Shown: positions 10,350 to 52,451, counted from the stretch's first letter. The stretch: DNA of 64,000 nucleotides from an uncultured Caldilineales bacterium (GCA_937907455.1 CALESQ010000079.1:1-64000); one strand, 5' to 3'. A program made the numbers and translations. The notes: generated from the letters alone by a model not told the origin.

Positions 10350-10351
10350 CG

Positions 10352-11713: not shown

Positions 11714-11715
11714 GT

Positions 11716-13938
11716 TCAGGCAGGGGTTAGGTTAGGATCAGAAGGAGTTGATGCTTTTAGCAATTTTTCCCACGACAACTCAATGCCTTCCGGATCGGCA
11801 AAATCAACATAAACCAGATAGGCAATGCGCAGGGGAAGCTCAACTTTTTCCTTGCGCAAGGGGACAAAGCGCCGTTCTCGATTAGCAGAATCAAGTGTCT
11901 GTAACATCAAATTCTCGAATTCCGTCCAACCGCTATCCATGTAATTTTGTGTGAGTATAGCCACAGTTTTTCGGCTTGTCTTAATTGCACGTTCCATTTC
12001 AATGACACTAGGCGCGCCTGGCTCAAAGTCAATGAAGTCAATACAAACCTTGAGATTGGCAGCTTTCAACCGCGGCAATAACTCAGCAACCACCCAGGCG
12101 CGATCCTTTGAACTGTAAGAAATAAAAACATCATACTCAAAGGACGAAGTTGTCGAGACAGAAGGTGATGATTGAGATGGAAATGATGGCTTCTTTGGAT
12201 TGCTCCAACTCTTGGGGGGCCAAGCATCATTTTGCCCGCTGTCCAGACTGCGACAAGTTGTGCCGCCTAACAGAGCGCATCGCTCATCCAGTGGAAGATC
12301 ACCCTCTTCTATTGGGTTATCTTCCTTCCGCATAGGCAAGGTTAAACGAAATGCTGTATTCAGCAGCAACGCCCAACGGTAAGGCCTGGTATCATCACCG
12401 GTTGTTGCTTTAGCGTGTTTACGGATGGTTTTAATGGCCTCAAAAGCCTTCACTGTATCGGTGCTAGCTCCTGAAGGCAAATCTGGCTCCCAAAATTTTA
12501 CTGGGTCTGACGAAAGCAGGTTAACGACAAGATGCAGAAACTCTGAAACCTTCGTTGCAAGTACCCGAAGAAGACGGGTGAGTATATCTATTTCTAACTC
12601 AACCCAATCGGCAAAAATCGGACCTGGGCCGGAGCGTTCGAAATCAATCAACCAAAGCTGCTTGGTTGTTTCATCTATAAAACAGTTGTCGGCCTGGAGA
12701 TCGCCGTGGATAACACACATTGGAATTGACTTGGGGCTATAGTCTTGGGAAACTATATAACCATTGGTTTCGCTGGCTTGTTCTAAAGCAATTCGTTGTT
12801 TTAGCCACGTAATTGGATCTGGGAGTTTTAGTTGCTCGCTAAACCAGGCTTGAAACTCAGGCGATACCTTTTCTAAAGCGCCTGCTGATGCACCGAAACG
12901 GTTGTGCCAGTTGTTGCCCCATAATGCTCTGTAAGCTTGATAAAGAGTTACTTTATTGTCGCCTTTTTCCTTTTTTGCATCATAGTAACTCTTCCACCCG
13001 GATCCGAAGTTGTTTAATACAGTGCAGATGTCTTCTGCCTGCCTTTCTTGATAATAGATGCGAAACAGAGCACCCACATCCCCAACATTCAAATAGCGAG
13101 TACCTTGGACATCCCATAAAACAGCTTCTGATTTCAGAGTAGCATAATACCTCAATGGAAATTTATCTTCCACGTACTTCTTATAACGAGTTGATTCATC
13201 ACGCGTCGGATCTGTTCGCACGATCTTGACAATATCGGAAATTGCGTTCCCATCTCGGTTAATCCGAATAACTACTGAACGCGGACGAACGCTACCTGCA
13301 CTGGGAAAACGATCATCGCTTTCTAAAGAATGGACTGCTAGCTGCTGGGCATCAGGATATAATTTCCAGAGGAGATCTTCTATTTCATCCACAGGAACAT
13401 CATCTTGATCAGGGAAAAGGCGTTTAATTAACTGTTCCGAGCCACCAATACTAAATGGCCATTTAATAAGCTCTTTTGTAAAGCGCCCCCAGTACTGGAG
13501 CTTTACTTCTTCAATAGTTTTCTCAAGCTCCTCAGGACCACTTTCCTTACCAACAAAGTCATAAGCGCGTAGGGGTACATCAGGTGGTGATTTGATAGCT
13601 GCACGCACGGTATCTTTGTCACCGTATCCGCTCACAATAATAGACACTGTAGGAGCGAGATGAGAAACAAGTTCCAAGCCTGTCCGATCAGTGGGATCAC
13701 CATCGCTTCTGAGCCGCATATCCACAAGAGCAATATGACATCGGTAATCATGCGCCTTTTTGATAGCGTCATCCCAAAGCGCCTGAAACAGATTGTCAGC
13801 GTCTTCGGGCGCTTCAGCCGCGTACGCTTCGTAACCCCAATCAGCAAGATTTTTGAGATGATCTTGTCGCCATTGCGGATCGTTCTCCACCACCAGAACA
13901 CGCGGCAGGTTCTCTTTACCCTTAGTATTGTCACTCAT
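11716..13938 (-). CDS. Three-domain protein: response-regulator receiver (REC), protein-kinase-like (APH/choline-kinase-type) phosphotransferase domain, and a C-terminal TIR domain.
   Basis: REC: RVLVVENDPQ...HIALVDMRL...VSIIVSGYG...AYDFVGK. Kinase-like: IHGDLQADNCFID (HGDLhxxN catalytic loop) and LWLIDFERSG (DFG/IDWE equivalent). TIR: YDVFISYSSKD (beta-A), DFEPG (BB-loop P-G) and SGWTEFENLM (the W-x-x-x-E glutamate used by NADase TIRs). Confidence 0.8.
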   Translation of the reverse strand: MSDNTKGKENLPRVLVVENDPQWRQDHLKNLADWGYEAYAAEAPEDADNLFQALWDDAIKKAHDYRCHIALVDMRLRSDGDPTDRTGLELVSHLAPTVSIIVSGYGDKDTVRAAIKSPPDVPLRAYDFVGKESGPEELEKTIEEVKLQYWGRFTKELIKWPFSIGGSEQLIKRLFPDQDDVPVDEIEDLLWKLYPDAQQLAVHSLESDDRFPSAGSVRPRSVVIRINRDGNAISDIVKIVRTDPTRDESTRYKKYVEDKFPLRYYATLKSEAVLWDVQGTRYLNVGDVGALFRIYYQERQAEDICTVLNNFGSGWKSYYDAKKEKGDNKVTLYQAYRALWGNNWHNRFGASAGALEKVSPEFQAWFSEQLKLPDPITWLKQRIALEQASETNGYIVSQDYSPKSIPMCVIHGDLQADNCFIDETTKQLWLIDFERSGPGPIFADWVELEIDILTRLLRVLATKVSEFLHLVVNLLSSDPVKFWEPDLPSGASTDTVKAFEAIKTIRKHAKATTGDDTRPYRWALLLNTAFRLTLPMRKEDNPIEEGDLPLDERCALLGGTTCRSLDSGQNDAWPPKSWSNPKKPSFPSQSSPSVSTTSSFEYDVFISYSSKDRAWVVAELLPRLKAANLKVCIDFIDFEPGAPSVIEMERAIKTSRKTVAILTQNYMDSGWTEFENLMLQTLDSANRERRFVPLRKEKVELPLRIAYLVYVDFADPEGIELSWEKLLKASTPSDPNLTPA

Positions 13939-16900
13939 GATTTCGCTCCTGAATTACTTGGCTTAGATGGCAGGCGGATAGCGAACAAAGCCCCTTGACC
14001 TTCAACGGCTGGGTAGAGATGGATGCGCCCGTTCATTGTTTCGATCAATGATTGGGCAATCAGTAAGCCAAAACCACTGTTTTGCTGGGTGTCGTCATTC
14101 TTTTTGGTCGAAAAGGGTCCGCGCAAAAGGTGTCGCCGCGCTTCAAAATCAAGACCAGGGCCGTTGTCCTGAATTTGCAGTTCCACTTGCTCAGAGGAAA
14201 GACGGTGGACGCGCAACGTGATTTGCTTAACAAGGGTTGTCGCCAGCGCTTCGGCTGCATTGCGCAATAGATGGCGTACAGCGCGCCAGGTTTGTTCTTT
14301 GTAGGCATAAACGACATGATCTTCATCGTCGGCAAAGGTTATCTTTACGTCGGAAGCGTTCGTGATGCGCCAGTGACGCACTCGGGGTTCGAGGAATTCT
14401 TTCAAAAAAAATCCGACCGGATCATTTCGTTCTATGTGCGCGTCACGCACAGTGTCTGCCAATTGCCCTGCGCGTCCGTCAATCTCTTTAGCCCAATCCA
14501 CTTTTTGATCTGCGGTAGCCCTGGTATCTGTTTGCAGCCAGCCCGCACGATTGCGAATATAGCCCACCTCGCTGTTGATGTCATGAGCAATATCAGCCGC
14601 CCAGGCCATCGCGCCGGCCACTGAAACGCGACTCTGTGCCAATGCAGCATGGCCTAAGCGGTCAAGCGCCAAAGCAACTTGTTTGGCTGCCATTTCAAAA
14701 AGTCTCTCGTCGTCTTCACCAAAAGCATTCGGTGTGTCACTCTTGATCACCAAGACCCCGATCAGCTTATCGTTGCTGCCCAATAAGCCAGCGCATAGCT
14801 CAGACTGTGTGTTTGAGTTGACTTCAACATATATGCCCTTGTACTTCTCGTCATGAACGTTTTTGACGTTTTCTATGATGATTTTCTTCTCGTTAAGGGA
14901 ACGTCGGGCTACCTCGCAGGTGATCCCTTCGCCGTCAAGGGGTAAACGGACACGGTGCTGATATTCAGGTATTGTAGGCTGATAAAATTCCCTTGCCACC
15001 TTGGGAAGCTCTAACACATCCTCGCGATCCTCGTAGAGCATAATATAAGGCGTTGCTGTAGGATCTTTGCGGCTAAACTCCTCTTTTAAGACGTTTAATA
15101 CGCCGCGCAAAACAGTGTCAAGGTCCAGGCTGGCTCCTGCGGCGGTGGCAACCCTCAAGGCAGTCTCAAATCGTTGCTGTCGCTGCTGTGCCAATTCCAG
15201 CGTTTGCGCATTGTGGATGGCGGTGGCAGCAGCGTCGGCAAAGGCGGTGAACAAGGCCCGCTCAGTAGCCAAAAACTCATGACGTTTGCGATAATTTAAG
15301 AATAATGCTCCAATTGCAGCAGATTTGGTACCGAAGCGCAAGGAAAGTGCCGCAGTTGAGAAAATGCCCTCCTCGCGCGTAAAGTCTCCATCTAAGACGG
15401 AGCCGTTCTCTATAACCGAAGCAAACAAAGGATTAGGGCGCTCCATCACGGTTTTCACCAGGTGATCACTGGTTCTGCTGCCACGATGTTTTTCGTTTTG
15501 TACATTCCATTGCGGCCCTGAAATCAGCTTGTCTTTGTCTTCTGCATCGGTATACCACATGGTGATGCAATCCAGTTCCGGCGCCACCTTGCGGGCATAC
15601 GCGACGATGGCGTCGAGGGTTGTGGCTAAGTCCATAGATGCAGACACGGTAGCAATCGTCTGCGCCATGGTTTGCAGATCACTGCGGGTGCGTACGCTAT
15701 CCAACGCCAACTCGCAGGCCCGGCCCAAGCGCTGTAAGCTCTCTTCATCCAGAGTGCTGAAGGATGCTTTCTTGTCTGATTGGCGGACGGCCAATGCGCC
15801 GATGGCTTTTTCACCGGTGCGCAGCAGAACAATTAAATCATTCTTGTTGCGGTGTAAAGGCTTGTTTTGCTCCAAAACCTGGCCAATCGCTCCAGCATGG
15901 ATTTCGCTAGACAGCGAGCGCAGCTCGCCTTTTGGGGTGAGATGATAATCGCGGCGCATTTGCTTGCGCTGTTCCCCTTCTCCTTCCCAGTGAGCTATAG
16001 CCAGAGTAGTTTTGACTCGGTGATCGAACAGGTCTGCAGTATTCGATAGAATGGAGCGTCTTAACTTTTTCTCATCCACATCGGAGGCCAACGCTTGAGC
16101 TTGAATGTTCGCGATCAGTTGCATGCTAAGCCGTTGCCGTTCCATGCCATGCTCAGCTTGGACGCGCCCATGTTGTTCCTGCCCGAATTCACGCGCATAG
16201 CTAATGACCGTAGCGCCAATTGTCGCCAGATGTTCGGAGCGGGCAATGTCCTCTTCGGTGAAAGATCGCGGTGTACGATAGTCAAAATAAATCACACCCA
16301 GCGGTTCTGCTGTCAAGGCTTTGCGCATGGGAACGGCTATCATTGCTTTGACACCTTCACGCTTGACAAATGAATGTTCAGCGAGGCGCTTGCCCCCAAA
16401 CTTTAGCGTAGAATGATCAACGTCAGCTACCACCAGATTACCAGATTGCAAGACCGAAAAGGTGACGCCTTGTTGGCGCGGTTTGTTTTTAGAGATGAAA
16501 TCATCACCGTGGTTCAAGCCACGATGGACAACGTTGTTCAAGTCATAAGCGCCTGTTTCAGCCAGATAGGGATAAATCACAATACTGTTCGCTGACATGA
16601 TGGAATCAGCGGATTGGTCACACAGGTCTTGCAAGCTCTCTTTTAAGGGTCGCTGGGCTGCCCGCTCGGTGATGCGCCGGTTGAGTGCGAGGATGTTTTC
16701 ATACTTTTCGCCAAGCAGGCGACTTCGGTTTCTTTCCTGTGCCTGCTGCCATTCAGTCATGGCCTGCGCCAGCAATTCTTCCACCTTGCTCAGATCGCCA
16801 TGACGAAGGGGCTCGCCGTCAAAAGCGTTGTCTACCCACAAAACCCCGATGACTTTGCCACCCTGTTTGACCGGCAGCAAGGCGCAGTCGTAGTCTGTTG

Positions 16901-18809
16901 CCTTGTCCAGTAAATCAGATGGGTGGGGCAATGAACTTTCCGGCAGCGCATTTTCCAATGCCGAAGAAGCCATGGTTCTGCGTGCTGGACTACGCAAAAT
17001 ATCAACCTGCTCTGAGCTAAGTCGCCACTCAACGACTGCCTGTTGCAGAGGGGTTGGATCAGACAAGGCCAGATGAGGAGCGGCAAAGTAGTCTTGCAGG
17101 CTTTTTTTGCCATCGCGATCCTTTTCCCAGGACCCCCGCGCCTCTTTGCGCGTCCAGTGGCCAATGGCCATGCGTCCCATCCAGAGGCTATCTGCCACCG
17201 GCGATTGCAAAAACAGCAAGGCGCGGTTGAAACTGTTGCCCTCGCGATGGGTAATCGTAGTCAACACGGCATGCCAAAAGCCTTCTTCTGACTCCTCGAT
17301 CAAACGCGGCAGCACGGCCCGGAGTTGCTTGGCTGCTTCATCCTGGCGCTTCTTCTCTTCTTCGCGCTCGTGCTGATAGGCCGCATAAATCGCACCGGCA
17401 ATTTGATCAGCAATTTTGCCGAGTAGCTGCTGATGGCTAGGCGTATAGGATATTTTTTCATCATAACTTTGAACAGCTAGCACACCAATGACTTTTCCAC
17501 TATCTAATCGCAGTGGCACGCCCAGCCAACAAGCAGCCGGCCTGCCAAAATGGTCAATGCCATTATCTTGACAGAATTTTATCGCATCATGAAAAAGCAG
17601 AGATTGGTTTTTGGATATGAGATAACCACTCACTGCACTACCTGGTTTATGCCAGTGGCGATCTTGTAACACGTTGTCTTCATAGTGTCTTCGATAATCA
17701 AGATAGCCTGTTTCCAAATCGGACAAAACAACCATAAAGTTAGATACATCCAGCTTGACACGTTTTCCCACCAGGCGGCGTATCTCGTCCAGCAGTTCAT
17801 CGAGATTGCTGGTAGCGGCTTTGGTAATGATCTGCCTGCCAATGGTACTCAACAACTCCGCTTCCCGCGCCTGCTCTTGCGTTTGCTCATGCAGCCGCGC
17901 CCGCTCTAACGCCGCTGCGGCCTGATTGCCGAACAAAGCTAATACCGCCCCGATTTGATTGCGCTGTTGTGCGCTAAAAGCAGAATCCAGTTCATCGTTG
18001 TCCAGAGTGAGTGTACCAACTTTGTGGTTTCCGCTCGACAGCGGGATTTTTACCCATTCTCCGACCGGTGGTTGCATCCCTTGGGCTGCATAAAATTCAT
18101 CAGTTCCACCCTTACCTGCCTCACGCGCCTTGAAGATCATCGGCTTGCCAGCTTCAATTGCTTGCTTGGAATACATTAACTCCTTCAAAGGTGCGCGCAA
18201 ACCTGCAAACCCTTTCAAGCGAGCGGTGCCTGCCTGACTAACACCTACCATTTCAGGATCACCCTGTGCTTCCTGGCCTTGTTCTACCAAGAGGCGCAAG
18301 CGCGCGCGCTTAAAATCAAAGTGTAGAGCGCCCTGAACAATGGCATCGGCTACAGCTTGCACGGTCGAGGCGCTCTGCATGGCGGTGGTGACCTCGGTCA
18401 AAATTTGCAGCCAGTTGCGTTCATTGCGAATACCACGGCTTTTTTCAATGGACTTAAGCACGTAGACGAGTTCGCGCGTGTCAAAAGGCTTGGTCAGATA
18501 GCGATACGCCCCCAAATCAAAGGCAGCAATCCCCGCCTCAACCTCGTTGTAACCAGTCAGGATGATGGCATCGCTTTCCGGGCTGAGATCGCGCAGTTGC
18601 CCCATCAAGACAACACCGTTAACGTCCGACCCTTCCAGGCGTTGATCCAAAACAAAAGCAGCAAAAGGCGAGGCAGCCTCCTTCACCGCCAAACGCGCCT
18701 GTGCTGCGCTGTTGACGGCAACCACATCAAATCCTTTTTCGAGTCGCCTCAGTTGCTCACCGAGCATGTGAGCAAGTACTTCGTCGTCGTCTACAATTAA
18801 AATACGCAT
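13935..18809 (-). CDS. Giant hybrid sensor histidine kinase: N-terminal REC, at least 6 tandem GAF domains, HisKA and HATPase_c (about 1,625 aa).
   Basis: REC: MRILIVDDDEV...AFVLDQRLEG. GAF cores, for example ACWLGVPLRLDSGKVIGVLAVQS, LGVIYFDY, IGALAVRQS and LIGVLVIKS. H-box ADIAHDINSEV. HATPase_c: QDNGPGLDF...GFGLLIAQSLIETMNGRI. The start was placed at the internal ATG at 18809 (MRILIV), giving a 16-nt gap to the upstream gene. Confidence 0.8.
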   Translation of the reverse strand: MRILIVDDDEVLAHMLGEQLRRLEKGFDVVAVNSAAQARLAVKEAASPFAAFVLDQRLEGSDVNGVVLMGQLRDLSPESDAIILTGYNEVEAGIAAFDLGAYRYLTKPFDTRELVYVLKSIEKSRGIRNERNWLQILTEVTTAMQSASTVQAVADAIVQGALHFDFKRARLRLLVEQGQEAQGDPEMVGVSQAGTARLKGFAGLRAPLKELMYSKQAIEAGKPMIFKAREAGKGGTDEFYAAQGMQPPVGEWVKIPLSSGNHKVGTLTLDNDELDSAFSAQQRNQIGAVLALFGNQAAAALERARLHEQTQEQAREAELLSTIGRQIITKAATSNLDELLDEIRRLVGKRVKLDVSNFMVVLSDLETGYLDYRRHYEDNVLQDRHWHKPGSAVSGYLISKNQSLLFHDAIKFCQDNGIDHFGRPAACWLGVPLRLDSGKVIGVLAVQSYDEKISYTPSHQQLLGKIADQIAGAIYAAYQHEREEEKKRQDEAAKQLRAVLPRLIEESEEGFWHAVLTTITHREGNSFNRALLFLQSPVADSLWMGRMAIGHWTRKEARGSWEKDRDGKKSLQDYFAAPHLALSDPTPLQQAVVEWRLSSEQVDILRSPARRTMASSALENALPESSLPHPSDLLDKATDYDCALLPVKQGGKVIGVLWVDNAFDGEPLRHGDLSKVEELLAQAMTEWQQAQERNRSRLLGEKYENILALNRRITERAAQRPLKESLQDLCDQSADSIMSANSIVIYPYLAETGAYDLNNVVHRGLNHGDDFISKNKPRQQGVTFSVLQSGNLVVADVDHSTLKFGGKRLAEHSFVKREGVKAMIAVPMRKALTAEPLGVIYFDYRTPRSFTEEDIARSEHLATIGATVISYAREFGQEQHGRVQAEHGMERQRLSMQLIANIQAQALASDVDEKKLRRSILSNTADLFDHRVKTTLAIAHWEGEGEQRKQMRRDYHLTPKGELRSLSSEIHAGAIGQVLEQNKPLHRNKNDLIVLLRTGEKAIGALAVRQSDKKASFSTLDEESLQRLGRACELALDSVRTRSDLQTMAQTIATVSASMDLATTLDAIVAYARKVAPELDCITMWYTDAEDKDKLISGPQWNVQNEKHRGSRTSDHLVKTVMERPNPLFASVIENGSVLDGDFTREEGIFSTAALSLRFGTKSAAIGALFLNYRKRHEFLATERALFTAFADAAATAIHNAQTLELAQQRQQRFETALRVATAAGASLDLDTVLRGVLNVLKEEFSRKDPTATPYIMLYEDREDVLELPKVAREFYQPTIPEYQHRVRLPLDGEGITCEVARRSLNEKKIIIENVKNVHDEKYKGIYVEVNSNTQSELCAGLLGSNDKLIGVLVIKSDTPNAFGEDDERLFEMAAKQVALALDRLGHAALAQSRVSVAGAMAWAADIAHDINSEVGYIRNRAGWLQTDTRATADQKVDWAKEIDGRAGQLADTVRDAHIERNDPVGFFLKEFLEPRVRHWRITNASDVKITFADDEDHVVYAYKEQTWRAVRHLLRNAAEALATTLVKQITLRVHRLSSEQVELQIQDNGPGLDFEARRHLLRGPFSTKKNDDTQQNSGFGLLIAQSLIETMNGRIHLYPAVEGQGALFAIRLPSKPSNSGAKS

Positions 18810-18825
18810 CGTTTTTCCCTTCCCG

Positions 18826-21039
18826 TCAGATACGATAGGGCAGCTCCACCGCCATGGTGGTGCCCCAAAGGGTATGGCTGGACTCGATAAATACACGACC
18901 GCCCTGAGATTCGATCAGGCTGCGGGCAATGAACAACCCCAGACCGCTTCCATCTTCTCTGGTGGTATAGTCCATCTCAAAAATTCGTTCCCACAAGCGC
19001 TGATGAATGCCCGGGCCGTCATCCTGCACATATAAGCGCAGGATGTTTTTTCCTTCATGTTTGGTTTGTAGCATTTGAATTTCAACCCGGCCGCCACGCT
19101 CCGGTCTCGTTAACGCGATTTGCTGGATGGCATTTTGTACTACATTCACCAACACCTGTTGCAGGTAGGTAATCATCGCCCGCGTGAAATAAAGTTTGGG
19201 AGCTGGGCGGAGAATTAATTCAACTTTGTTTTCTTTGGCCGTTTCGCTCAGCAGGCTCACCACTTCATGGGCAACTTCGTCCAGACGAATTAATTCTTCC
19301 ACCCCTGAGCGTGTTATTTTGCCGAAAGAGTGCATCGTATGGGCCATGCTTTGTGTTTGTTGCGTCAGCTTTTGCAGTTCTTCTTTTGTCCGTGCTGTTT
19401 CCCTGATAACTTCCTCAGGAGAAGTAAGGGCACATTGCTCTACCCGCTTGCAGCCCTCTTCGAGATCCCGCAAGATAAGATTGAGTGGGCTAATACGTCC
19501 GCTGATTTCATGAATCACGGTGCGGCTCAACTGCCCCAGCAAAGCAACCCGTTGTAAATCCGCCGTTTGTTTAATCAATTGCTGGCGTTCCAGCCAGGAA
19601 GCAATGCGCGCCGCGCTTCCTTCGGCGCTGGCGATCAGCCCATTGGGGATGAAAGCGAGCGGGTGACTGAAAAACAGGAACAATGCGTAGCGTTTGCGCA
19701 GATGAGCCGGCACCGGCACGCCGCAGCACGCGCTGAAATCAAGCAAAGGCAGCACGTGTCTTAAGCGTCCGGCGGTTTGCTGCTGAACATGGTTAGCAGT
19801 AAAAACAGTCTGCTCTTCAGCCACGTTGCGTATCGGACTGTAGATTAGCTCCGGCCACGCCGTGTTGCGCAAAGAAACAGGCCCTTTGTGTTCAAACACC
19901 TTGATCTGCGCCTGATCTGTATCCAGCTCAAAGAGCACTGCCTTGTCAGCTTGCGCAGCACTGATAGCACGCAGCAGCATAACAGCCAGTTCGCTTTGTT
20001 CAGCCTTGGGTACGGTAAATACAGATTGTTCTAATGTCATACGGGTAGGCGAACTGGAAGGTGCTAGTGATTGGTCGGGCTTTTCCAGCAACATTTCAGC
20101 TAAATGGTTAGGCAGTAAAGGCTTGATCAAGAGCGATACTCCCTCTTTGCGCAGGGGCGTTAGCTCCTTGTCACGGCGTTCTGCCCTTCCCCAATCGGTC
20201 ATCAACACGCAGCGCAGCTCAGGCCATTGGAATCTGATCTGCCGGGCTGCGGCAATGCCATCCATGCCGGGCAGGCCAATATCCATCAACACCAAATCCG
20301 CCGATTGTGCTTCAAGAAAGGCAAGAGCCTCCTCTGCCTTCTCAGCCACATAAACGACACGTTGACCGACATTACGTAGCCAGTTCGCCAGCGACAGACG
20401 TTGATCCTCCTCATCTTCTACCACTACGATAGATTTAGGAACGCTGCTCAAGAGCTGTTGAATAGCGGTATTGTTAAGTCGGCTGGGAGACAATCCCTGT
20501 ACTGCACTCTTTGTCACAGTTTCAGGGTAGTGCCCGGCGCTATTCCATCGGTATTTTTCCAGTTGGCGCATGCTCAAAGCAACCCGTCTGCGCTTGCGGT
20601 CAACCGCGTCTATCGTTACTTTGACCAGATCACCGGGCCAGAAAACATCACCTATTGCCTCTTGTTTCCAATCGGGAAGATGAGAGATATGAACCAACCC
20701 AGAAAAGTCCTTTTCGAGCTTAACAAATACCCCATACGGCATGATGCCATCAACAACGCCACTAACTAAAGCGCCTACTGGAAAGCCATCAGCAGTGACA
20801 TTCCACAAATAAGCTTCAGCCAGCCAAATTTCCTCACTGTGTTGGCCCACAGCTTCGATTGGCTGTACAACGATTTCCAGCGAGTCTCCAGGCTTGTAAC
20901 GAGGAATTCTGGGGAACTTTGCCAGGATTTCAGGATTTGTGTCCCGCACCAACCCCTGCCGCCCATCCGGCAGCGCGACAATCAACCCGGCAGGGGTTGC
21001 GCGCACAACACGGGCATGGAGGGGCTGCGAGTAAAGCAT
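18826..21039 (-). CDS. Hybrid sensor histidine kinase with two N-terminal S1 RNA-binding domains, then REC, HisKA and HATPase_c.
   Basis: S1 domain: GALVSGVVDGIMPYGVFVKLEKDFSGLVHISHL...GDLVKVTIDAVDRKRRRVALSMRQL. REC: KSIVVVEDEEDQRL...DLVLMDIGLPGMDG. H-box VIHEISGRISPL. HATPase_c: YVQDDGPGIH...GSGLGLFIARSLIESQGGRV. Confidence 0.75.
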   Translation of the reverse strand: MLYSQPLHARVVRATPAGLIVALPDGRQGLVRDTNPEILAKFPRIPRYKPGDSLEIVVQPIEAVGQHSEEIWLAEAYLWNVTADGFPVGALVSGVVDGIMPYGVFVKLEKDFSGLVHISHLPDWKQEAIGDVFWPGDLVKVTIDAVDRKRRRVALSMRQLEKYRWNSAGHYPETVTKSAVQGLSPSRLNNTAIQQLLSSVPKSIVVVEDEEDQRLSLANWLRNVGQRVVYVAEKAEEALAFLEAQSADLVLMDIGLPGMDGIAAARQIRFQWPELRCVLMTDWGRAERRDKELTPLRKEGVSLLIKPLLPNHLAEMLLEKPDQSLAPSSSPTRMTLEQSVFTVPKAEQSELAVMLLRAISAAQADKAVLFELDTDQAQIKVFEHKGPVSLRNTAWPELIYSPIRNVAEEQTVFTANHVQQQTAGRLRHVLPLLDFSACCGVPVPAHLRKRYALFLFFSHPLAFIPNGLIASAEGSAARIASWLERQQLIKQTADLQRVALLGQLSRTVIHEISGRISPLNLILRDLEEGCKRVEQCALTSPEEVIRETARTKEELQKLTQQTQSMAHTMHSFGKITRSGVEELIRLDEVAHEVVSLLSETAKENKVELILRPAPKLYFTRAMITYLQQVLVNVVQNAIQQIALTRPERGGRVEIQMLQTKHEGKNILRLYVQDDGPGIHQRLWERIFEMDYTTREDGSGLGLFIARSLIESQGGRVFIESSHTLWGTTMAVELPYRI

Positions 21040-21157
21040 GGTCGGCAGCTTTCGTGAACAGAAAACAGCATACAGACGAGGACGATAACGCGGGGAAAGT
21101 TCACTCGCTATTATAACACAGCCACACTGCCCTGCTGCTATCAGATTTCTGGCAAAA

Positions 21158-40282: not shown

Positions 40283-40390
40283 TCTCCTGAGTCATAATTC
40301 GTAACCCGTAACCCGTAACTCAGAGTGCTACGGGCTTTGCAGCCGCAGATGTCAATTCCGGGTTACGAATTACTCGTTACGAGTTACGTT
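40283..40390. repeat. Member of the GTAACCCGTAAC / CAATTCCGGGTTACG extragenic repeat family, between pgk and gap.
   Basis: ttcgtaacccgtaacccgtaactcag ... caattccgggttacgaattactcgttacgagttacg. Confidence 0.7.
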
Positions 40391-41416
<1,026 letters not shown>

Positions 41417-45979: not shown

Positions 45980-46006
45980 CTATTCTCTGTTTTATCGGAT
46001 GACGCT

Positions 46007-46654
46007 ATGAAACGCAAGCTTTTTTTCGGCACGCTCTTGCTGGCGCTGGCTGCGGTGTTGTTTGCTCTGTGGGCCGATCGCCATGTGGAAACCAGCGCAG
46101 CAGGCCGGGTCTACAACGATCTGGACGCGCTGCCACCGCGCCGCGTGGCGCTGGTGCTGGGCACGGCGAAATACTACAACGGACGCATCAACGCGTTTTA
46201 CCTGGGGCGAATGCGTGCCGCAGCCCAGTTGTATCACGCCGGTAAAGTGCAAGGCATTCTGGTAAGCGGCGACAACGGCAGTACTGCCTACAACGAACCA
46301 GAGGAAATGCGTCGCGATCTGATAGCGTTGGGTGTGCCCGGCGAGTACATTACCGCAGACTATGCCGGATTTCGCACCCTCGATTCGATCTATCGCGCCG
46401 AGACAGTGTTCGGCTTGCAGGCTTACATCATCGTGTCACAACCCTTTCACATCGAACGTGCTTTGTATCTGGCTGATCAGCGCGGGCATGATGTGGTAGG
46501 CTATGCCGCGGCCGGGCCGGGTGGCTACTGGAATCGCCGCGTGCGTGTCCGCGAGGTACTGGCCCGCGCCAAAGCCGTGCTGGATGTGGAGCTACTCAAC
46601 CAGCAGCCGAAGTTTTTGGGCGATCCGGTTGAGGTGGTGACTCGTAACGAGTAA
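46007..46654 (+). CDS. SanA/YdcF (DUF218) family protein.
   Basis: N-terminal TM anchor and a DUF218 core (ALVLGTAKYYNGRIN...ILVSGDNG). The 3' end runs into a GTAAC repeat (C-terminal ...VVTRNE). Confidence 0.65.
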   Translation: MKRKLFFGTLLLALAAVLFALWADRHVETSAAGRVYNDLDALPPRRVALVLGTAKYYNGRINAFYLGRMRAAAQLYHAGKVQGILVSGDNGSTAYNEPEEMRRDLIALGVPGEYITADYAGFRTLDSIYRAETVFGLQAYIIVSQPFHIERALYLADQRGHDVVGYAAAGPGGYWNRRVRVREVLARAKAVLDVELLNQQPKFLGDPVEVVTRNE

Positions 46655-46700
46655 CTCGGAATTGACTTCTGCGGCTGCTAAGGTGTTAAACTCTGAGTTA
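46640..46700. repeat. Partial copy of the GTAAC-family extragenic repeat.
   Basis: cgtaacgagtaactcggaattgacttctgcggctgctaaggtgttaaactctgagttacgc. Confidence 0.6.
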
Positions 46701-46738
46701 CGCATTACTTCTTACTTCTTACTCTCCCCGCTCCTCCC

Positions 46739-47209
46739 ATGCTTCACGTCCTCTTCGTTTGTCTAGGTAATATTTGCCGCTCGCCGATGGCAGAAGCGGT
46801 GTTTCAGCAGTTGGTGGCCGAGGCCGGCCTGAGCGACCGCATTGCGGTTGACTCTGCGGGCACGGCGGGTTGGCACGAAGGCGAACGCGCAGATGCGCGC
46901 ACGCTGGCGGTGCTGCGCGCCCGCCACATCCCCTACGATGGCCGCTCACGCCCGATACGCGCGGCAGATCTGGCGCATTTCGACTATGTGGTAGCCATGG
47001 ACGGACAAAACCTGGCTGATCTGCGCCGCCTTGACCAAACAGGCGCGCTTGAGGGTAAATTGTTTCGCTTGCTGGATTTTGCGCCGCGTGGCACCGGCCA
47101 AGATGTGCCCGACCCCTACTACGACAACCGCTTTGAACACGTCTATCAACTGGTGGAGGCTGGCTGCCGCGGCCTGTTGAAAGCTATCCGCGCAGCTCAG
47201 GGGTGGTAA
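46739..47209 (+). CDS. Low-molecular-weight protein-tyrosine phosphatase.
   Basis: CLGNICRSP P-loop and DPYY motif. Confidence 0.9.
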   Translation: MLHVLFVCLGNICRSPMAEAVFQQLVAEAGLSDRIAVDSAGTAGWHEGERADARTLAVLRARHIPYDGRSRPIRAADLAHFDYVVAMDGQNLADLRRLDQTGALEGKLFRLLDFAPRGTGQDVPDPYYDNRFEHVYQLVEAGCRGLLKAIRAAQGW

Positions 47210-47289
47210 GTCTCTCGTTTTTAAACAAATCCCAAAACTTTCTTCACAGAATCACAACAAGTTGGGGGTATGCTGGGGGTATGAATAGT

Positions 47290-47560
47290 AACACGTAACC
47301 TGGAATTGAGCTGGCAGGCTTTAAGGATGTGGTTACGTGTAACTTCGTAACCCGTAACCCAGAATTAAGCTGGTAGGCTTTAGGTATGTAATTAGGCGTA
47401 ATGCGTAACCCGGAATTGAGCCTAGCAGGATCCAAATATGTGGTTAGTCGTATCTTGCAGCTCAGAACCTAACATCCATGCAGCCACAGATCTCAAATCC
47501 GAGTTACGGGTTACGAGTTACGGGTTACGAGTTAATCCCCACCTCAACACCGAAGGATTT
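47290..47560. repeat. Three tandem degenerate copies (about 55 nt each) of the GTAACC(C/T)GGAATTGAGCTGG... element, plus a conserved roughly 60-nt tail directly upstream of the 47566 gene.
   Basis: Copies begin near 47295, 47354 and 47405. The tail CAGAACCTAACATCCATGCAGCCACAGATCTCAAATCCGAGTTACGGGTTACGAG recurs at 49364-49425. Confidence 0.8.
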
Positions 47561-47565
47561 CCCCA

Positions 47566-48029
47566 TGTCACGCAACCAACTACGTTATATGTTTGGCGCT
47601 CTCACGATCACTGCAATGGCCTTGTTGCTGGTGCTGGCTTTTGGTCACAATGCCGGCCGCGTCACCGAATCGGCGGTTTCAGCCGATGTGGCAGCCCTGC
47701 AAACGGAAAATGTTCAACTCAACCAAACCTTGCAGGTGATGCAACAGCGCGAGGTCCAATATCAAGCTCAGATCCAGCAGGCCAACGACACCATCGAACA
47801 ACTGGTCAACGATCTGGACGCTGCTGAGACCAGGCAAGCTGACAATTCTTTCTTCTCAGACAATGCCCCATTGGCGCCCTCCTCTTTTCTCGACAATGCG
47901 CAATCGGCTTTGCAAAATCTGTTCGATGATGACAGTGATGACTTTACGCCGAACGGCAGCTCTGAAAGCGACGCTGCCGACCAGTTTGTCCGACCTTTTG
48001 ATCACACTCACGAAAGACGCCACCCATGA
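47566..48029 (+). CDS. Membrane-anchored coiled-coil protein (hypothetical).
   Basis: TM helix ALTITAMALLLVLAF, then Gln-rich coiled coil and an acidic tail. Start at the internal ATG MSRNQL. Confidence 0.5.
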
Positions 48030-48337
48030 CCTCTTCTTCTCATAGCAAACAACCGGCTCGATCCAACGGCTGGTTGAAGGTGGCGCTGGCCGGCAGTGGC
48101 ATTGCGCTCACGGTGTTGGGTACAGGGCTGATTGCCCGTGAAGCAGCCGGTCAAACTCAAACCAACGTCCGTACAGACAGCGCCTTGCAGGCCATCCCCA
48201 CGGTGATGCCTGTGCCCAGCCGCAGCCGCTCAAACCGCAGCAGTCGCGGCTCCCGACAACAACTGCAAGCACCCGGCCAATCCAGCCAGGGATTACAAAT
48301 GCCCGGCGGCTTCACTCAATCCCGCTCTTCACGTTAG
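48026..48337 (+). CDS. Small signal-anchored protein ending ...QSRSSR; paralog of the 50336 gene.
   Basis: LKVALAGSGIALTVLGTGLIAREAAGQT resembles [28 protein letters not shown] in the paralog. Both end MP.P.RSRS...RSSR. Start overlaps the upstream stop (ATGA). Confidence 0.5.
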   Translation: MTSSSHSKQPARSNGWLKVALAGSGIALTVLGTGLIAREAAGQTQTNVRTDSALQAIPTVMPVPSRSRSNRSSRGSRQQLQAPGQSSQGLQMPGGFTQSRSSR

Positions 48338-48350
48338 ATATCACCGTTTT

Positions 48351-49316
48351 ATGGATGCTCACCTACCCCTGCACCAACACCGCTTCCGCGCCATGGGCAG
48401 CCAAATCGTCATCTGGTTGCAACATACCGATGCGGATGAGGCTCGCGATGCCTGCACCCTGGCCGAGGATCTGTTCGCCGCAGCAGAACAGCGCATGAGC
48501 CGCTTCCTGCCGCACAGCGAGCTGTCGCAGCTCAATGCGCGCAGCGGCGAGTGGGTGACAGTATCACGCCTGCTTTGGCAGGTCATTTCCCACGCCCTGC
48601 TGCTGGCCCAGGAAACTGGCGGCCTGTTCGATCCAACCATCGGCAACGCGCTCTTGGCCGGTGGCTATACCGCATCGTTTAGCCCCACACAACGCCAACT
48701 CAACGGCTCTGACCAGGCAAACGCTGAACCGCTGATCGGCCGCTGGCGGCAGGTCGAATTGGATCCCTTGCGCCATGCAGTGCGCGTTCCAGCCGGTCTG
48801 CGCCTTGATCTGGGCGGCATTGGCAAGGGCTACACCGCGCAGATGGCCGTGGACCTGCTGGCGTTGTGGGGGCCATGCCTGGTGGATGCAGGCGGCGATG
48901 TCGTGGCCGGTGATGGCCCGGCCGGTCAACCCGGCTGGCTGGTGGGCGTGGCTCATCCCTCGGAACAAGACGCAGAGACAGCTCTGGAGCTATGGCTGAA
49001 CAACGCCACATTGGCTACCTCTGGGATAGATTATCGCTGGTGGTGGCAAAACGACCGGCGTCAGCATCATCTGATTGACCCGCGCACCGGCCAGGCCGCA
49101 CAAACCGACCTGCTGACGGCTACCGTGTTAGCCGCGGATGGCAGCGAGGCCGAAGCCTGGGCCACTGCATCGCTGGTAATGGGCCGGCAGCCCAGCCTGA
49201 CGCTGGCGGCTGAGCAGCATCGTGCTCTGATCGTGGCCGACGAGACCGGCGTCATGCAGCGCTCGGCGGCTGTTGAGCCGTTCGTGGCAGGGCGATACGT
49301 AACTCGTAACTCGTAA
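48351..49316 (+). CDS. apbE: FAD:protein FMN transferase (ApbE family).
   Basis: LRLDLGGIGKGY (ApbE signature), DPTIGN, LIDPRTG. Confidence 0.8.
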   Translation: MDAHLPLHQHRFRAMGSQIVIWLQHTDADEARDACTLAEDLFAAAEQRMSRFLPHSELSQLNARSGEWVTVSRLLWQVISHALLLAQETGGLFDPTIGNALLAGGYTASFSPTQRQLNGSDQANAEPLIGRWRQVELDPLRHAVRVPAGLRLDLGGIGKGYTAQMAVDLLALWGPCLVDAGGDVVAGDGPAGQPGWLVGVAHPSEQDAETALELWLNNATLATSGIDYRWWWQNDRRQHHLIDPRTGQAAQTDLLTATVLAADGSEAEAWATASLVMGRQPSLTLAAEQHRALIVADETGVMQRSAAVEPFVAGRYVTRNS

Positions 49317-49440
49317 CCCAGAATTGAGCTGGTAGACTTCGAGTACTTCATTAGGCGTAATTTGCAACTCAGAACCTAACATCCATGCAGCCACATATCT
49401 CAAATACCAGTTACAGGTTACGGGTTAATCCCCCATCCCA
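49298..49440. repeat. Second full copy of the GTAAC element plus the conserved roughly 60-nt tail, upstream of the 49510 gene. Overlaps the ApbE 3' end (C-terminal ...YVTRNS).
   Basis: cgtaactcgtaactcgtaacccagaattgagctggtag...CAGAACCTAACATCCATGCAGCCACATATCTCAAATACCAGTTACAGGTTACGGG. Confidence 0.8.
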
Positions 49441-49509
49441 ACCTGCAACCCTCTCATTCTCCGGATTACGCGTTAATCCCCCACCCACAAAATTCTCACT
49501 GGTTTTGCC

Positions 49510-50184
49510 ATGACATCATCCAACCTTTCATCTTCTTCTCTGTCGAGCCCCCTGCGTTGGGTAGCTTACACCTTAGTAATGGCGTTGCTGATAGCGGCCA
49601 GCGCCTGGTTGACGGCGCGTATGGCTCCCGACGTGCTAACGGTTTCCAACGAAACCATCTGGTACGCCATCCGCGCCAGTGGCAACGTGGCCTATTTGCT
49701 GCTGGCCGCTTCCACGGTTTGGGGTATCATGCTCAGCAGCAAAATCCTCAAGCGCTGGATTCCCACCGCAGTAGCCCTGGATTTGCACAACTATCTTTCA
49801 TGGCTGGCCATTGGCCTTTCTGCTCTGCACGCAGCGCTGCTGCTGGCTTCCAGCTATTTCGACTATCACCTGCTCAACCTGTTCGTACCGTTCACCGGGC
49901 CGTTTAAGCCGTTCTGGGTCGGCCTGGGCATCATTGGGCTGTATCTGATGATCCTGACCACGGTCACTTTCTATCTGATTGAGCGCATTGGCTACATCGC
50001 TTTCCATCGCATTCATGCGCTGGCGTATCTGGCCTTTGTTGGCAGCTTGCTGCACAGCATTGTAGCCGGTACCGACACACCGGCCATGGCCCCCGTCTAT
50101 CTCGCTACCGGGCTGATGGTACTGTTTGTCACCACCTATCGCATTCTCTCGATGGGACAGAGCCAGTCACGCAGCTCAAATTAA
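49510..50184 (+). CDS. Ferric-reductase-like transmembrane domain protein (MsrQ/YedZ-like, six TM helices).
   Basis: Six TM helices with conserved His pairs (LHNYLSWLAIGLSALH; FHRIHALAYLAFVGSLLH), typical of the heme-b-binding FRD/MsrQ fold. Confidence 0.6.
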   Translation: MTSSNLSSSSLSSPLRWVAYTLVMALLIAASAWLTARMAPDVLTVSNETIWYAIRASGNVAYLLLAASTVWGIMLSSKILKRWIPTAVALDLHNYLSWLAIGLSALHAALLLASSYFDYHLLNLFVPFTGPFKPFWVGLGIIGLYLMILTTVTFYLIERIGYIAFHRIHALAYLAFVGSLLHSIVAGTDTPAMAPVYLATGLMVLFVTTYRILSMGQSQSRSSN

Positions 50185-50204
50185 CCCGGAACGGATCCCC
50201 AGCA

Positions 50205-50238
50205 AGGCCGCAGAGCAAACGTCCTGCGGCCTTTTTAT
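50205..50238 (+). terminator. Rho-independent terminator after the MsrQ-like gene.
   Basis: GGCCGCAGagcaaacgtcCTGCGGCC followed by TTTTTATT. Confidence 0.7.
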
Positions 50239-50335
50239 TGGCAACAGTTTCCCTATAATTCCTTCATGCTTTCCAAACAGGTTTCCGGTAAGCTGTAGCC
50301 ATTCTGTCATTCATCATTAAACAAGGAAATCAACT

Positions 50336-50716
50336 ATGAATCTAAACCGAAATGCCCCCCGCAATGGAATGTTGAAAGCTACACTTACCGGCGGCAGCGT
50401 TGCCTTGACTTTACTGAGCATCGGCGTGCTGGCGCGCAACGAAGGACAAGCGGCCGCCGTGCAGCCGCAACTGGTTGCCTCGTTCACCCTTGCTGATCTG
50501 CCTGCCATTCCCACATTGATGCCGCTGCCCACTGCCTCACCCACCCCTGAACCGGTGCTGATGCAACCCACCTCGGCAGTGGCTGTGCCTGCGGCCACTC
50601 CGCTGGAAACCGATGTGCCCACCGCCACCGCAACGCCCACGCTCACGCCTGTGCCCACCGCCACGCCTGCACCGGTGCAGGTGATGCCACCGGTGCGCAG
50701 CCGCTCTTCACGCTAG
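50336..50716 (+). CDS. Small signal-anchored Pro/Thr/Ala-rich protein ending ...VRSRSSR; paralog of the 48026 gene.
   Basis: RBS AGGAAA. N-terminal anchor similar to the 48026 protein and the same RSRSSR tail. Confidence 0.5.
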
Positions 50717-50766
50717 CCCATCCATCGCCCGCAAACAAGACATCAATGCCGGTCAGGATGCTGAAT

Positions 50767-50795
50767 CTGACAAGCGCATCTGCCCGTGCTATAAT
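50767..50795 (+). promoter_or_regulatory. Sigma70-like promoter (CTGACA, 17 nt, TATAAT).
   Basis: CTGACA at 50767-50772 and TATAAT at 50790-50795, upstream of the carboxyltransferase gene. Confidence 0.5.
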
Positions 50796-50840
50796 GCGCC
50801 TGCCGATCCCCCAACCTCTTCTTTCAGACACAGGTGGACT

Positions 50841-52451
50841 ATGGAAGTCCTCGATTCGCATCTCGACCCGCGTGATCCTCAATTTCAAGCCAACGCTGCT
50901 CATAATCGCGACCTGGCCCAAGCCCTGCGCAATCGGCTGGCTGAAGTCCGCAGCGGCGGCGGCCAGCAGGCCCAGCAACGTCACCGCGAACAGGGCAAGC
51001 TGTTTGTCCGCGAGCGCATTGACAAGCTGCTCGACCCCGGCTCACCTTTTCTGGAGCTATCACCGCTGGCCGCGTGGGAATTGTACGAAGGTGACGCACC
51101 CAGCGCCGGCATTGTCACCGGCATTGGCCGCGTGGCCGGACGCGAATGCCTGATCGTAGCCAACGATGCCACCGTGAAGGGCGGAACTTACTATCCGATG
51201 ACCGTGAAAAAGCATCTGCGCGCTCAGCAGGTAGCTTTGGAAAACCGTCTGCCTTGCATCTACCTGGTAGATTCAGGCGGCGCCTTCCTGCCAATGCAGG
51301 ATGAAGTTTTCCCCGATGTAGACGATTTCGGGCGCATTTTCTACAACCAGGCCACCATGAGCGCGGCCGGCATCCCGCAAATCGCCGCGGTGATGGGTTC
51401 GTGTACGGCGGGCGGGGCTTACGTGCCGGCCATGAGCGATGAAACCGTGATTGTCAAAGGCACCGGCACGATTTTTCTGGGCGGGCCACCGCTGGTAAAA
51501 GCCGCCACCGGCGAAGAAGTCACCGCCGAGGAACTGGGCGGGGCCGATGTACACGCGCGCGTCTCTGGCGTGGCCGACCACCTGGCGCTGGACGATGACC
51601 ACGCGCTGGAGATTGTGCGCGGCATTGTAGCCACACTCAACACCCGCAAACAGCTAAACTTGGACCTGGCCCCGGTGGAAGAGCCGCTGCACGACCCGGC
51701 AGAGCTGTATGGCGTGATCCCTCAGACCTTTCGTGAAGTGTATGACGTGCGTGAGGTGATCGCCCGCCTGGTGGATGGCAGTCGTCTGCGTGAGTTCAAA
51801 GCGCTGTACGGCACAACCCTGGTGTGCGGCTTTGCCCGTATCTGGGGCTATCCCGTGGGAATCATAGCCAACAACGGCATTCTGTTCAGCGAATCTGCCT
51901 TGAAAGGGGCACACTTTGTAGAGCTATGCACTGCGCGGCACATCCCCCTGCTGTTCCTGCAAAACATCACCGGCTTCATGGTAGGCAAACAATACGAAAC
52001 CGGCGGCATTGCCCGCGACGGGGCCAAGATGGTACACGCCGTTGCCAACGCTCAGGTTCCCAAGCTCACCGTAGTGATTGGCGGTTCCTTCGGCGCCGGC
52101 AACTATGGCATGTGTGGCCGTGCTTATGGCCCGCGCTTTCTGTGGATGTGGCCCAACAGCCGTATCAGCGTAATGGGCGGCGAACAGGCTGCCAATGTGC
52201 TGCTCACAGTGAAACAGGAACAATTGGCGCGGCGCGGCCAACCGGCCATGAACACGCAAGAGCAGGAAACCTTCAAGCGCCCCACGCTGGAAAAATACGA
52301 ACGCGAGGGCAGTCCCTACTACGCCACGGCGCGACTGTGGGATGACGGCATTCTCGACCCCGCGGAAACGCGTCAAGTGCTGGGATTGGCGCTATCAGCT
52401 TGCCTCAACGCGCCCCTGAACGACACGCGCTACGGCGTTTTTCGCATGTAG
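50841..52451 (+). CDS. Acyl-CoA carboxylase carboxyltransferase subunit (methylcrotonyl-CoA / propionyl-CoA carboxylase beta-chain family).
   Basis: Carboxyl-transferase domain: [66 protein letters not shown]. Length 536 aa, typical of MCCB. Confidence 0.85.

Follow-up and report, generated by a model that had tools for sequence, protein, structure and literature searches.

Near-identical intergenic elements around a Caldilineales apbE gene: probable units of a dispersed hairpin repeat beside a conserved ApbE/MsrQ-like cluster with SRSSR-tailed small proteins

Introduction

Among the short intergenic repeats of bacteria, repetitive extragenic palindromes (REPs) are 20-40 bp long, carry GTAG or CGTC tags and are tied to REP-associated tyrosine transposases (RAYTs), each REP retaining the short tag that is recognised by its RAYT (PMC3733652). 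Intergenic heptameric simple sequence repeats (SSRs) are over-represented in some bacteria, which has been attributed to slippage, and they recur between the same gene pairs in related species with highly variable length and sequence (PMC4692102). The present study concerns an intergenic element of which two near-identical copies lie on either side of an apbE gene in a 64,000-nt stretch of DNA from an uncultured Caldilineales bacterium (GCA_937907455.1, CALESQ010000079.1:1-64000), the whole of which is referred to as the window.

A preliminary description of this locus proposed a duplicated module, composed of the element, a membrane-protein gene and a small-protein gene, and suggested that the shared element could act as a common promoter or operator, function as a cis-regulatory RNA, or mark where a duplicated mobile unit ends. 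Our analysis indicates that the notion of a module duplicated together with its regulatory element is not tenable. Instead, the element probably belongs to a dispersed hairpin repeat that resembles REPs, bacterial interspersed mosaic elements (BIMEs) and miniature transposable elements with inverted repeats (MITEs), next to which stands a separate and conserved ApbE/MsrQ-like gene cluster with small proteins that end in SRSSR. This small-protein family and its orphan-ApbE cluster merit follow-up; genomes with an orphan apbE have been taken to imply undiscovered substrates (Méheust et al. 2021, PMC8238504).

Results and Discussion

The near-identity of the two spacers was readily confirmed, as a repeat search of the window yielded a 77-nt direct repeat with 88% identity (47444-47520 vs. 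49351-49427), and the exact 28-mer CTCAGAACCTAACATCCATGCAGCCACA occurs twice in the 64 kb compared to 0 times in 100 shuffles. Their reported position, some 45-85 nt before membrane-protein genes, is likewise correct, with the copies ending 45 nt ahead of the ATG at 47565 and 85 nt ahead of the ATG at 49510, respectively. Their reported extent proved right for the core only, since the similarity is not confined to ~60 nt but spans ~140 nt when both spacers are aligned (47397-47540 vs. 49296-49434). At both sites, a composite inverted doublet is present of which the ~60-nt core forms the right half, and the element as initially delineated comprises the core and right arm of those two units of a larger family that are most alike.

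Further clusters, at 40300-40390 and 46640-46700, were first revealed by a census of the hexamers CGTAAC/GTTACG, and a total of 8 segments at four intergenic loci of the window could be aligned as one family. An nhmmer profile of these units recovered precisely these 8 segments in the window (E-values of 1e-13 to 1e-17), with the rest being noise. The element is thus not peculiar to the supposed module, as six further units of the same family are present in the window. The units are:

40297..40390, + strand: complete single unit in the gap/pgk spacer, composed of (CGTAACC)3, the core and (GTTACGN)4; fold z=-3.73, E=3e-16
46637..46725, - strand: repeat unit in the spacer between the DUF218 gene and the gene for a low-molecular-weight protein tyrosine phosphatase (LMW-PTP), with the DUF218 stop codon inside the unit; E=5.5e-16
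47286..47346, - strand: repeat unit with perfect 14-bp inverted arms AGTAACACGTAACC / GGTTACGTGTAACT; fold z=-3.7
47345..47405, - strand: repeat unit, member of a tandem run
47397..47457, - strand: repeat unit, forming an inverted doublet with 47457-47540
47457..47540, + strand: repeat unit, first of the two copies noted initially, with core CTCAGAACCTAACATCCATGCAGCCACAGATCTCAAATCC followed by 4-5 GTTACGN heptamers ending in GTTAATCCCC; nhmmer E=1.6e-17
49296..49364, - strand: repeat unit, forming a doublet with 49364-49434, with CGTAACT heptamers overlapping the last codons and stop codon of apbE
49364..49434, + strand: repeat unit, second of the two copies noted initially, 88% identical to the first

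A full unit consists of (CGTAACN)n, a core of ~45 nt (consensus …CTAACATCC..GCAGCCRCAGA..TCAAWTCCG) and (NGTTACG)n. Unit length ranges from 60 to 95 nt, GTTACGN arrays in the window count 3-5 heptamers, and the units are arranged as singles, in tandem or as inverted doublets. As in MITEs, terminal inverted repeats enclose a non-coding core at 40297-40390, 46637-46725 and 47286-47346 and in both doublets. Since a CGTAACN array is matched by an inverted NGTTACG array, a unit that is single-stranded, be it as DNA or as RNA, can form a long hairpin, and the predicted folds of complete units are indeed superior to those of shuffled sequences (40294-40392, z=-3.73; 47283-47348, z=-3.70). The entire 47275-47566 spacer does so as well (z=-3.3), via pairing of its opposed heptamer arrays. 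As a separate observation, heptamer arrays are followed three times (i.e., at 47531-47545, 49424-49440 and 49472-49488) by GTTAATCCCC(C)A(Y)C, a motif that may represent either the end of the repeat or native 5′UTR sequence, and AACTATCCCA-like sequences resembling this motif are found near the ribosome-binding site in L004, L010 and L012 (L numbers denoting, here and below, the sequence records that were examined).

These features were compared with three groups of known repeats. Like REPs, BIMEs and REPINs, the units are short intergenic palindromes, mostly between co-directional genes, that can form hairpins; they also share the single, tandem and inverted-doublet arrangements, the presence or absence at orthologous sites and the association with assembly breaks. 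However, REP units measure 20-40 nt and have a unique stem, whereas the window units measure 60-95 nt and have arms of tandem heptamers. Moreover, a GTAG or CGTC tag is terminal in 0/8 window units, which end in CGTAAC/GTTACG heptamers instead, and while REPs and REPINs carry an association with RAYTs, no RAYT gene was seen in the ~74 kb considered here. The heptameric short tandemly repeated repetitive sequences (STRRs) of Calothrix/Nostoc and the GGGAATC repeats of Xanthomonas (PMC4692102) resemble the window arrays in being intergenic tandem 7-nt units that recur between the same gene pairs in relatives, with variable length and sequence and with copy-number variation between strains. In contrast to those repeats, the window arrays stand in inverted pairs around a conserved non-repetitive core, and they are neither G-rich nor quadruplex formers. 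Finally, MITEs, pneumococcal BOX elements and Neisseria Correia elements share the terminal inverted repeats around a core, the modular copy number, the location in 5′ untranslated regions (5′UTRs) or between operon genes, and the remodelling of open reading frame (ORF) ends (here …VTRNS* and …VTRNE*). They differ in that the window repeats come without an identified target-site duplication or a known parent insertion sequence (IS), and in that the terminal inverted repeats of the window units are microsatellite-like. The element is therefore best described as a Chloroflexota variant of the known REP/MITE/STRR type that has so far gone undescribed; a literature search found no paper on the heptamer strings and no description of the repeat class.

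The repeat-bearing spacers of the window lie between gap and pgk (both on the - strand), DUF218 and LMW-PTP, LMW-PTP and a gene termed cc154, and apbE and an msrQ-like gene. A fifth locus sits just past the window, in the DUF4442/adenine deaminase spacer (16592-16740 of L006, from JGI metagenome contig 3300014348|Ga0181821_1001461). The flanking genes of these loci are unrelated to each other, the spacers are co-directional, and the orientation of the repeat relative to transcription is not constant, as both occur. It had been asked whether the element would turn up regardless of gene context, and to the extent that the family adjoins unrelated genes at several loci, this is the case.

The repeats also shape the ends of genes. 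The C-terminus of ApbE (…VTRNS*, 49296-49316) is translated from heptamers in both the window and L012/L013, and that of the L010 ApbE (…VTRDP*) is likewise heptamer-encoded, while ApbE C-termini in repeat-free genomes are unrelated to VTRNS. The DUF218 protein similarly ends in …VVTRNE* within a repeat unit (46640-46654).

Both doublets are situated in a stretch of genes and signals that is referred to throughout the following comparisons:

47222..47276, + strand: promoter/operator-like block, 5′ of the repeats and upstream of the cc154-small1-apbE-msrQ unit
47565..48029, + strand: cc154, single-pass membrane protein of 154 amino acids with a coiled coil and an acidic tail
48026..48337, + strand: small protein 1 (small1), 103 amino acids, with an N-terminal anchor helix, IPTVMP, an Arg/Ser-rich disordered region and an SRSSR end
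48351..49316, + strand: ApbE-family FAD:protein FMN transferase, 321 amino acids, Pfam E=4.5e-55
49510..50184, + strand: MsrQ-like / ferric-reductase-like transmembrane protein, 224 amino acids, with His93, 107, 120, 166, 169 and 182
50204..50240, + strand: intrinsic terminator after the msrQ-like gene, with a 10-bp G+C stem and a U-run
50243..50296, + strand: promoter/operator-like block, second copy, upstream of small protein 2
50336..50716, + strand: small protein 2 (small2), 126 amino acids, with a Pro/Thr/Ala-rich linker and C-terminal PPVRSRSSR

At orthologous positions, the spacer between apbE and the msrQ-like gene measures 193-197 nt when it holds a repeat (193 nt in the window, and similarly in L012/L013), compared to 70 nt in L004, 48 nt in L140, 27 nt in L138 (Caldilinea sp. 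GCA_963852835.1) and 76 nt in L139 (Ardenticatenaceae), all of which lack it. On the other side, the distance from the conserved block to the cc154 ATG increases from 77 nt in L140 (no repeat) to 152 nt in L010, where one palindromic unit with heptamer CGTACTG intervenes, and to 290 nt in the window with its four units. In those relatives that do have an element at these spacers, the core and even the heptamer differ from those of the window. It thus appears from these alignments that the spacers gain or expand lineage-specific palindromic heptamer elements, the sequence of which is not conserved.

Conservation is instead seen in the ~55-nt block itself (consensus TTAA..TTCCCAA..CTTCAY..TCMnAACA..GGTAWGCTGGG). 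Its pattern CCCAA-N6-CTTCAY-N4-TCM-N-AACA-N2-T-N5-GTAWGCT occurs at 47231-47274 and 50251-50294 with an identical 44-nt spacing, and a search allowing <=2 mismatches gave only these 2 matches in the window where 0 were expected. The block recurs at the corresponding positions in L010, L016 and L004 and at both of them in L140, with 23 invariant columns across 7 sequences from 5 genomes, and it ends in a TATGCT/TAAGCT hexamer that resembles a -10 box. It is probably this block, and not the repeat, that serves as the shared promoter/operator. Upstream of cc154, the repeats are flanked by the block on one side and by the ribosome-binding region CCGAAGGA.TTCCCCATG on the other, and hence are probably part of the cc154 5′UTR. 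Moreover, the terminator after the msrQ-like gene (fold z=-4.4 in the window, -3.4 in L004 and -2.2 in L140), whose structure is kept in L004 and L140 with different stem sequences, would place small protein 2 in its own transcription unit. The locus may accordingly be read as a first unit running from the block through cc154, small1, apbE and the msrQ-like gene to the terminator, and a second unit consisting of the block and small2.

These comparisons bear on the idea that the element is a dedicated operator, promoter or leader RNA co-regulating both membrane-protein/small-protein modules. That the two copies are 88% identical and are each found on the coding strand, 45 and 85 nt upstream of starts, would suit such a role, as would the palindromic heptamer elements that L012/L013 and L010 have at the same intergenic positions. 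Nevertheless, we consider it very unlikely. The same repeat family is found next to unrelated genes and in both orientations, and the element is absent at the orthologous sites of L004, L140, L138 and L139; where relatives do carry one, its core and even its heptamer differ, while the separate upstream block is truly conserved. The second copy would moreover have to act from inside an operon, as apbE and the msrQ-like gene are only 27-76 nt apart in repeat-free relatives. Finally, the core itself shows no significant fold, Rfam match or sigma-70-like site: the 60-nt core alone folds no better than shuffles (z=-0.25 and +0.52 for the two copies), Rfam returned no match at E<=1 over 46000-51500, and a sigma-70 scan found no site inside either copy. 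A common operator or promoter is hence not supported, in view of the neighbourhood of unrelated genes, the mixed orientations, the lack of a sigma-70-like site and the absence from relatives. The proposal of a cis-regulatory RNA such as a riboswitch fares no better, given an element that is absent or replaced at orthologous loci, that occurs in both orientations, and whose core neither folds better than shuffles nor matches Rfam.

Variation was also observed between strains. A CGTAACT(T) array some 4.6 kb beyond the right end of the window counts 12 heptamers in the JGI contig (L006, 16592-16680) and 4 in the near-identical strain L007 (10910-10937), which is a microsatellite-type polymorphism resembling a variable number tandem repeat. 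Furthermore, contigs L002 and L012 (short-read assemblies of this and a related genome) begin inside a heptamer array, which fits with the breakage of assemblies that multi-copy repeats typically cause.

The core and degenerate patterns derived from it gave 0 matches in species-representative genomes and metagenome contigs, the source genome evidently being outside both collections. The arm pattern GTTACGNGTTACGNGTTACG (i.e., GTTACGN x3) was found in at least 120 stretches of the species-representative genomes and, among the matches listed, 29 of these stretches were in Chloroflexota metagenome-assembled genomes (MAGs), often on several contigs per MAG. The carriers include Caldilineales DTUCFX11, Chloroflexota PEA bin13, USDE_maxbin.019, Chloroflexia SMAG_U3335 and Anaerolinea spp. 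A CGTAAC array followed by a GTTACG array within 200 nt was seen in 10/29 of the Chloroflexota stretches vs. 2/91 of the others, again among the matches listed. With no more than a few percent of GTDB species belonging to Chloroflexota, their share of the arm matches looks like an enrichment, although this is indicative only. The junction GTAACCCGGAAT…ATTCCGGGTTAC is common to L134 (…CGTAACTCGTAACCCGGAATGGGGAGAAGCGGTTGCCCAATCCGGGTTACGAGTTACG…), L096, L042 and L027, the last of which has three tandem units and one inverted unit in the same layout as 47286-47540. Cores, on the other hand, differ between the Chloroflexota genomes that have this heptamer architecture in common.

Such a distribution could also mean that (GTTACGN)n and the junction are sites for a conserved Chloroflexota protein (e.g., a RAYT-like single-strand transposase, a nucleoid protein or an RNA-binding protein), and that the repeats form a host-maintained system. 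The same heptamer and junction indeed occur in different Chloroflexota classes (Caldilineales, Anaerolinea and Chloroflexia MAGs) with differing cores, the arms stay complementary with variable positions included, and REPs keep the short tag that their RAYT recognises (PMC3733652). However, Pfam calls on neighbouring genes revealed no transposase or candidate binding-protein gene across the 74 kb, intergenic DNA of bacteria is in general rich in heptamer SSRs, for which slippage is the explanation given (PMC4692102), and the enrichment in Chloroflexota rests on the at least 120 matches listed. We therefore regard a host-maintained system as unlikely.

The gene content of the locus speaks to yet another scenario, namely a segmental duplication of the whole element/membrane gene/small gene unit, with the repeat marking its end. 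The order of element, membrane gene and small paralogue is found twice, and the paralogy of the small genes fits with a unit duplication. The membrane genes at 47565-48029 and 49510-50184, however, lack homology (BLASTP E=0.19), so that the reported duplication of membrane-protein genes comes down to a single-pass coiled-coil protein on the one hand and a multi-pass MsrQ-like protein on the other. Moreover, ~46% identity over 59 residues for the small proteins and 88% for the DNA element point to incompatible ages, which argues against duplication as a unit. Distant relatives, whether they have repeats or not, already possess both small paralogues along with their differing partners, and the intergenic layout is not the same, with the msrQ-like gene separated from small2 by the terminator and block and with cc154 overlapping small1. 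Duplication of the whole unit is accordingly the least probable scenario we considered, to the point of being almost negligible. Of the three possibilities raised initially, the end of a duplicated mobile unit still comes closest in spirit, in that repeat or mobile-like DNA is involved, but no module was duplicated as a unit.

The claim that the small proteins are paralogous and share a similar anchor is well founded, as BLASTP aligned them with E=1e-10 and 46% identity over 59 residues comprising the N-terminal anchor and IPT(V/L)MP. The claim of a shared C-terminal tail needs adjustment. SRSSR ends both proteins, but the stretch MPVPSRSRSNRSSR that had been aligned is internal in small protein 1 (residues 61-74) and not conserved in its orthologues; the homologous motif there is the extreme C-terminal SRSSR, 29 residues past MPVPSRSRSNRSSR.

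While word-indexed protein searches with the small proteins returned only 3 and 4 relatives, an exhaustive profile search of 1.84 billion representative proteins gave 12 hits. A protein identical to small protein 1 is encoded on the JGI contig mentioned above (99.8 kb; window position = record position - 62), and the source is a member of the class Anaerolineae within the Chloroflexota. In the resulting family alignment of 12 sequences (i.e., the two window proteins and ten database relatives), all members have a basic N-terminus, (G)WLK, one hydrophobic helix, IPT, a disordered linker and a C-terminal SRSSR (12/12). Invariant columns are M1, the L-K of (G)WLK, helix residues, the P-T of IPT and the final S-R-S-S-R. 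The earlier reservation that the small proteins might have no homologues sharing the motif is thereby removed. RSRSSR is encoded by different codons in L004 (CGC TCA CGC TCC TCG CGT) and in the window (CGC AGC CGC TCT TCA CGC), which suggests selection on the peptide. The terminus is hence a conserved motif as proposed, and may serve as a signal or for binding.

The small proteins have no Pfam or NCBIfam family. AlphaFold2 models small protein 1 as a single helix (residues 15-40) with the rest unstructured (predicted local distance difference test of 54), and the basic N-terminus suggests an N-in, C-out topology by the positive-inside rule. We take small1 and small2 to be products of an ancient duplication, each a membrane protein with one helix and a tail that is disordered. 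Their gene order is well preserved, with cc154-small1-apbE kept in L010, L012, L013, L017 (45% identity) and L140, and msrQ-like-small2 kept in L004, L012, L016 and L140. In addition, an uncalled ORF directly upstream of apbE in the Caldilinea sp. genome (L138, ~3540-3995) ends in …QAQPLTRSRSSR (…LTRSRSSR), and an Ardenticatenaceae homologue of 95 amino acids (L139, 3643-3930) keeps IPTV and ends in ARGRSSG*. Together, these two cases indicate that the family is under-called and wider than protein databases show.

The neighbours of the small-protein genes are conserved as well. The cc154 product combines one N-terminal hydrophobic helix with a Gln-rich coiled coil and an acidic tail; it has no Pfam family, with sub-threshold matches only, and its orthologues precede small1 in relatives. 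In ApbE, the motifs GGIGKGY, ATSG and HHLIDPRTG are intact and the domain begins at residue 15. No signal peptide was found in six orthologues, the N-termini of which open directly with the …FRAMGS first strand. The multi-pass MsrQ-like protein hits PF01794 (Ferric_reduct) with E=1.2e-4, a score that does not reach the Pfam cut-off; a precomputed PF01794 assignment does, however, exist for 546 homologues, most of them from Anaerolineae, and a sequence search of the PDB returned no match. The adjacency of apbE and PF01794 is conserved in L012, L138, L139 and L140. The window MsrQ-like protein itself ends in …SQSRSSN* (50150-50184), a tail that is not kept in L140, L138 and L139, and its likeness to SRSSR is probably coincidental.

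In the MsrQ-like flavinylation systems described previously (PMC8238504), apbE likewise lies beside a gene for a six-helix, His-rich PF01794 protein, in a lineage-conserved manner. The window cluster nevertheless differs in having no FMN-binding domain gene and no NAD-binding domain, in its ApbE without signal peptide, in the lack of [ST]GA[ST] in its proteins, and in encoding a single-pass protein with a coiled coil as well as one or two mini-proteins that bear the SRSSR tail. More broadly, none of the five cluster proteins has an FMN-binding, DUF2271 or DUF3570 domain, and among the long ORFs in the window, D..[ST]GA[ST] is present only in an unrelated TIR-domain gene. Given that the cluster has neither an FMN-binding/DUF2271/DUF3570 gene, nor an exported ApbE, nor [ST]GA[ST], it was not assigned to the MsrQ-like flavinylation class.

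For the canonical motif, sequence motifs and AlphaFold models have been used to predict flavinylation sites on C-terminal extensions that lack structure (PMC11334425), and with these tail sites in mind a non-canonical role of the SRSSR tail is conceivable but unsupported. More boldly, SRSSR could be a new recognition or modification site (e.g., for non-canonical serine flavinylation by, or docking of, the adjacent ApbE), or the heptamer hairpins could be kept phylum-wide by a dedicated enzyme, both of which we deem quite improbable. If the former were true, Caldilineales and Ardenticatenales would have an 'orphan apbE' system in which the mini-proteins are the missing redox partner of an MsrQ-like cytochrome.

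The explanation that we consider probable thus has two parts (i.e., a dispersed REP/BIME/MITE-like hairpin repeat and a separate conserved cluster), and a number of points weigh against it. With regard to the repeat, the core subfamily with 88% identity is found only at the two sites noted initially, and the related L012/L013 and L010 have heptamer-armed palindromes at the same two intergenic positions, which could reflect a selected, position-specific hairpin instead of neutral repeats. No clear target-site duplication emerged from comparing the filled window site with the empty L004 site. The repeat-free L004 moreover has a 31-nt stretch that faintly resembles the arm junctions (AACCCAGA…GGGTTAA), which makes insertion inseparable from in-situ expansion or decay. 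No parent IS or transposase was identified for the repeat, and the qualification 'dispersed' rests on 5 loci in ~74 kb of genome plus other Chloroflexota. With regard to the cluster, the SRSSR tail is predicted to lie outside the cell while ApbE lacks a signal peptide, the [ST]GA[ST] target motif of ApbE is present in 0/5 cluster proteins, and any physical link of the small proteins to ApbE or the MsrQ-like protein is putative.

Under this two-part explanation, repeat units would spread or homogenise by a repeat-specific process (transposition or gene conversion), while the heptamer arms would lengthen or shorten through replication slippage, so that the repeats may be considered selfish or slippage-driven. 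Once transcribed, they would fold into hairpins within the cc154 operon 5′UTR as well as between apbE and the msrQ-like gene, where their influence might at most be a generic one on the stability of the mRNA or on read-through, as with REPs. The small proteins, in turn, would belong to a membrane redox module of MsrQ-like haem-b protein and ApbE, as its accessory subunits or its partners, with the SRSSR terminus as a putative docking or modification motif.

Elsewhere in the window, a low-GC island (~10350-21040, - strand; GC 0.46-0.55 vs. ~0.60 elsewhere) was observed that encodes four proteins, which we take to resemble the 'ternary' NTP-dependent conflict systems of multicellular bacteria:

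10352-11713, - strand: Trans_reg_C protein
11716-13938, - strand: TIR + TCAD9 + kinase-like protein
13935-18896, - strand: receiver / multi-GAF / HATPase protein of 1653 amino acids
18826-21039, - strand: S1 / receiver / HATPase protein

Conclusions

Reading the conspicuous near-identical 'upstream element' as a repeat averts its mis-annotation as a control site. At the same time, it documents a class of heptamer-armed palindromic repeats in Chloroflexota that differs from strain to strain, causes breaks in assemblies, and both alters the ends of genes and extends 5′UTRs. The small proteins constitute a narrow and partly unannotated family with an invariant C-terminal pentapeptide, tied to a cluster of a cytoplasmic-type ApbE and an MsrQ-like protein. 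Being without a known flavinylation substrate, this cluster offers a concrete candidate in which the substrates of orphan apbE genes may be sought.

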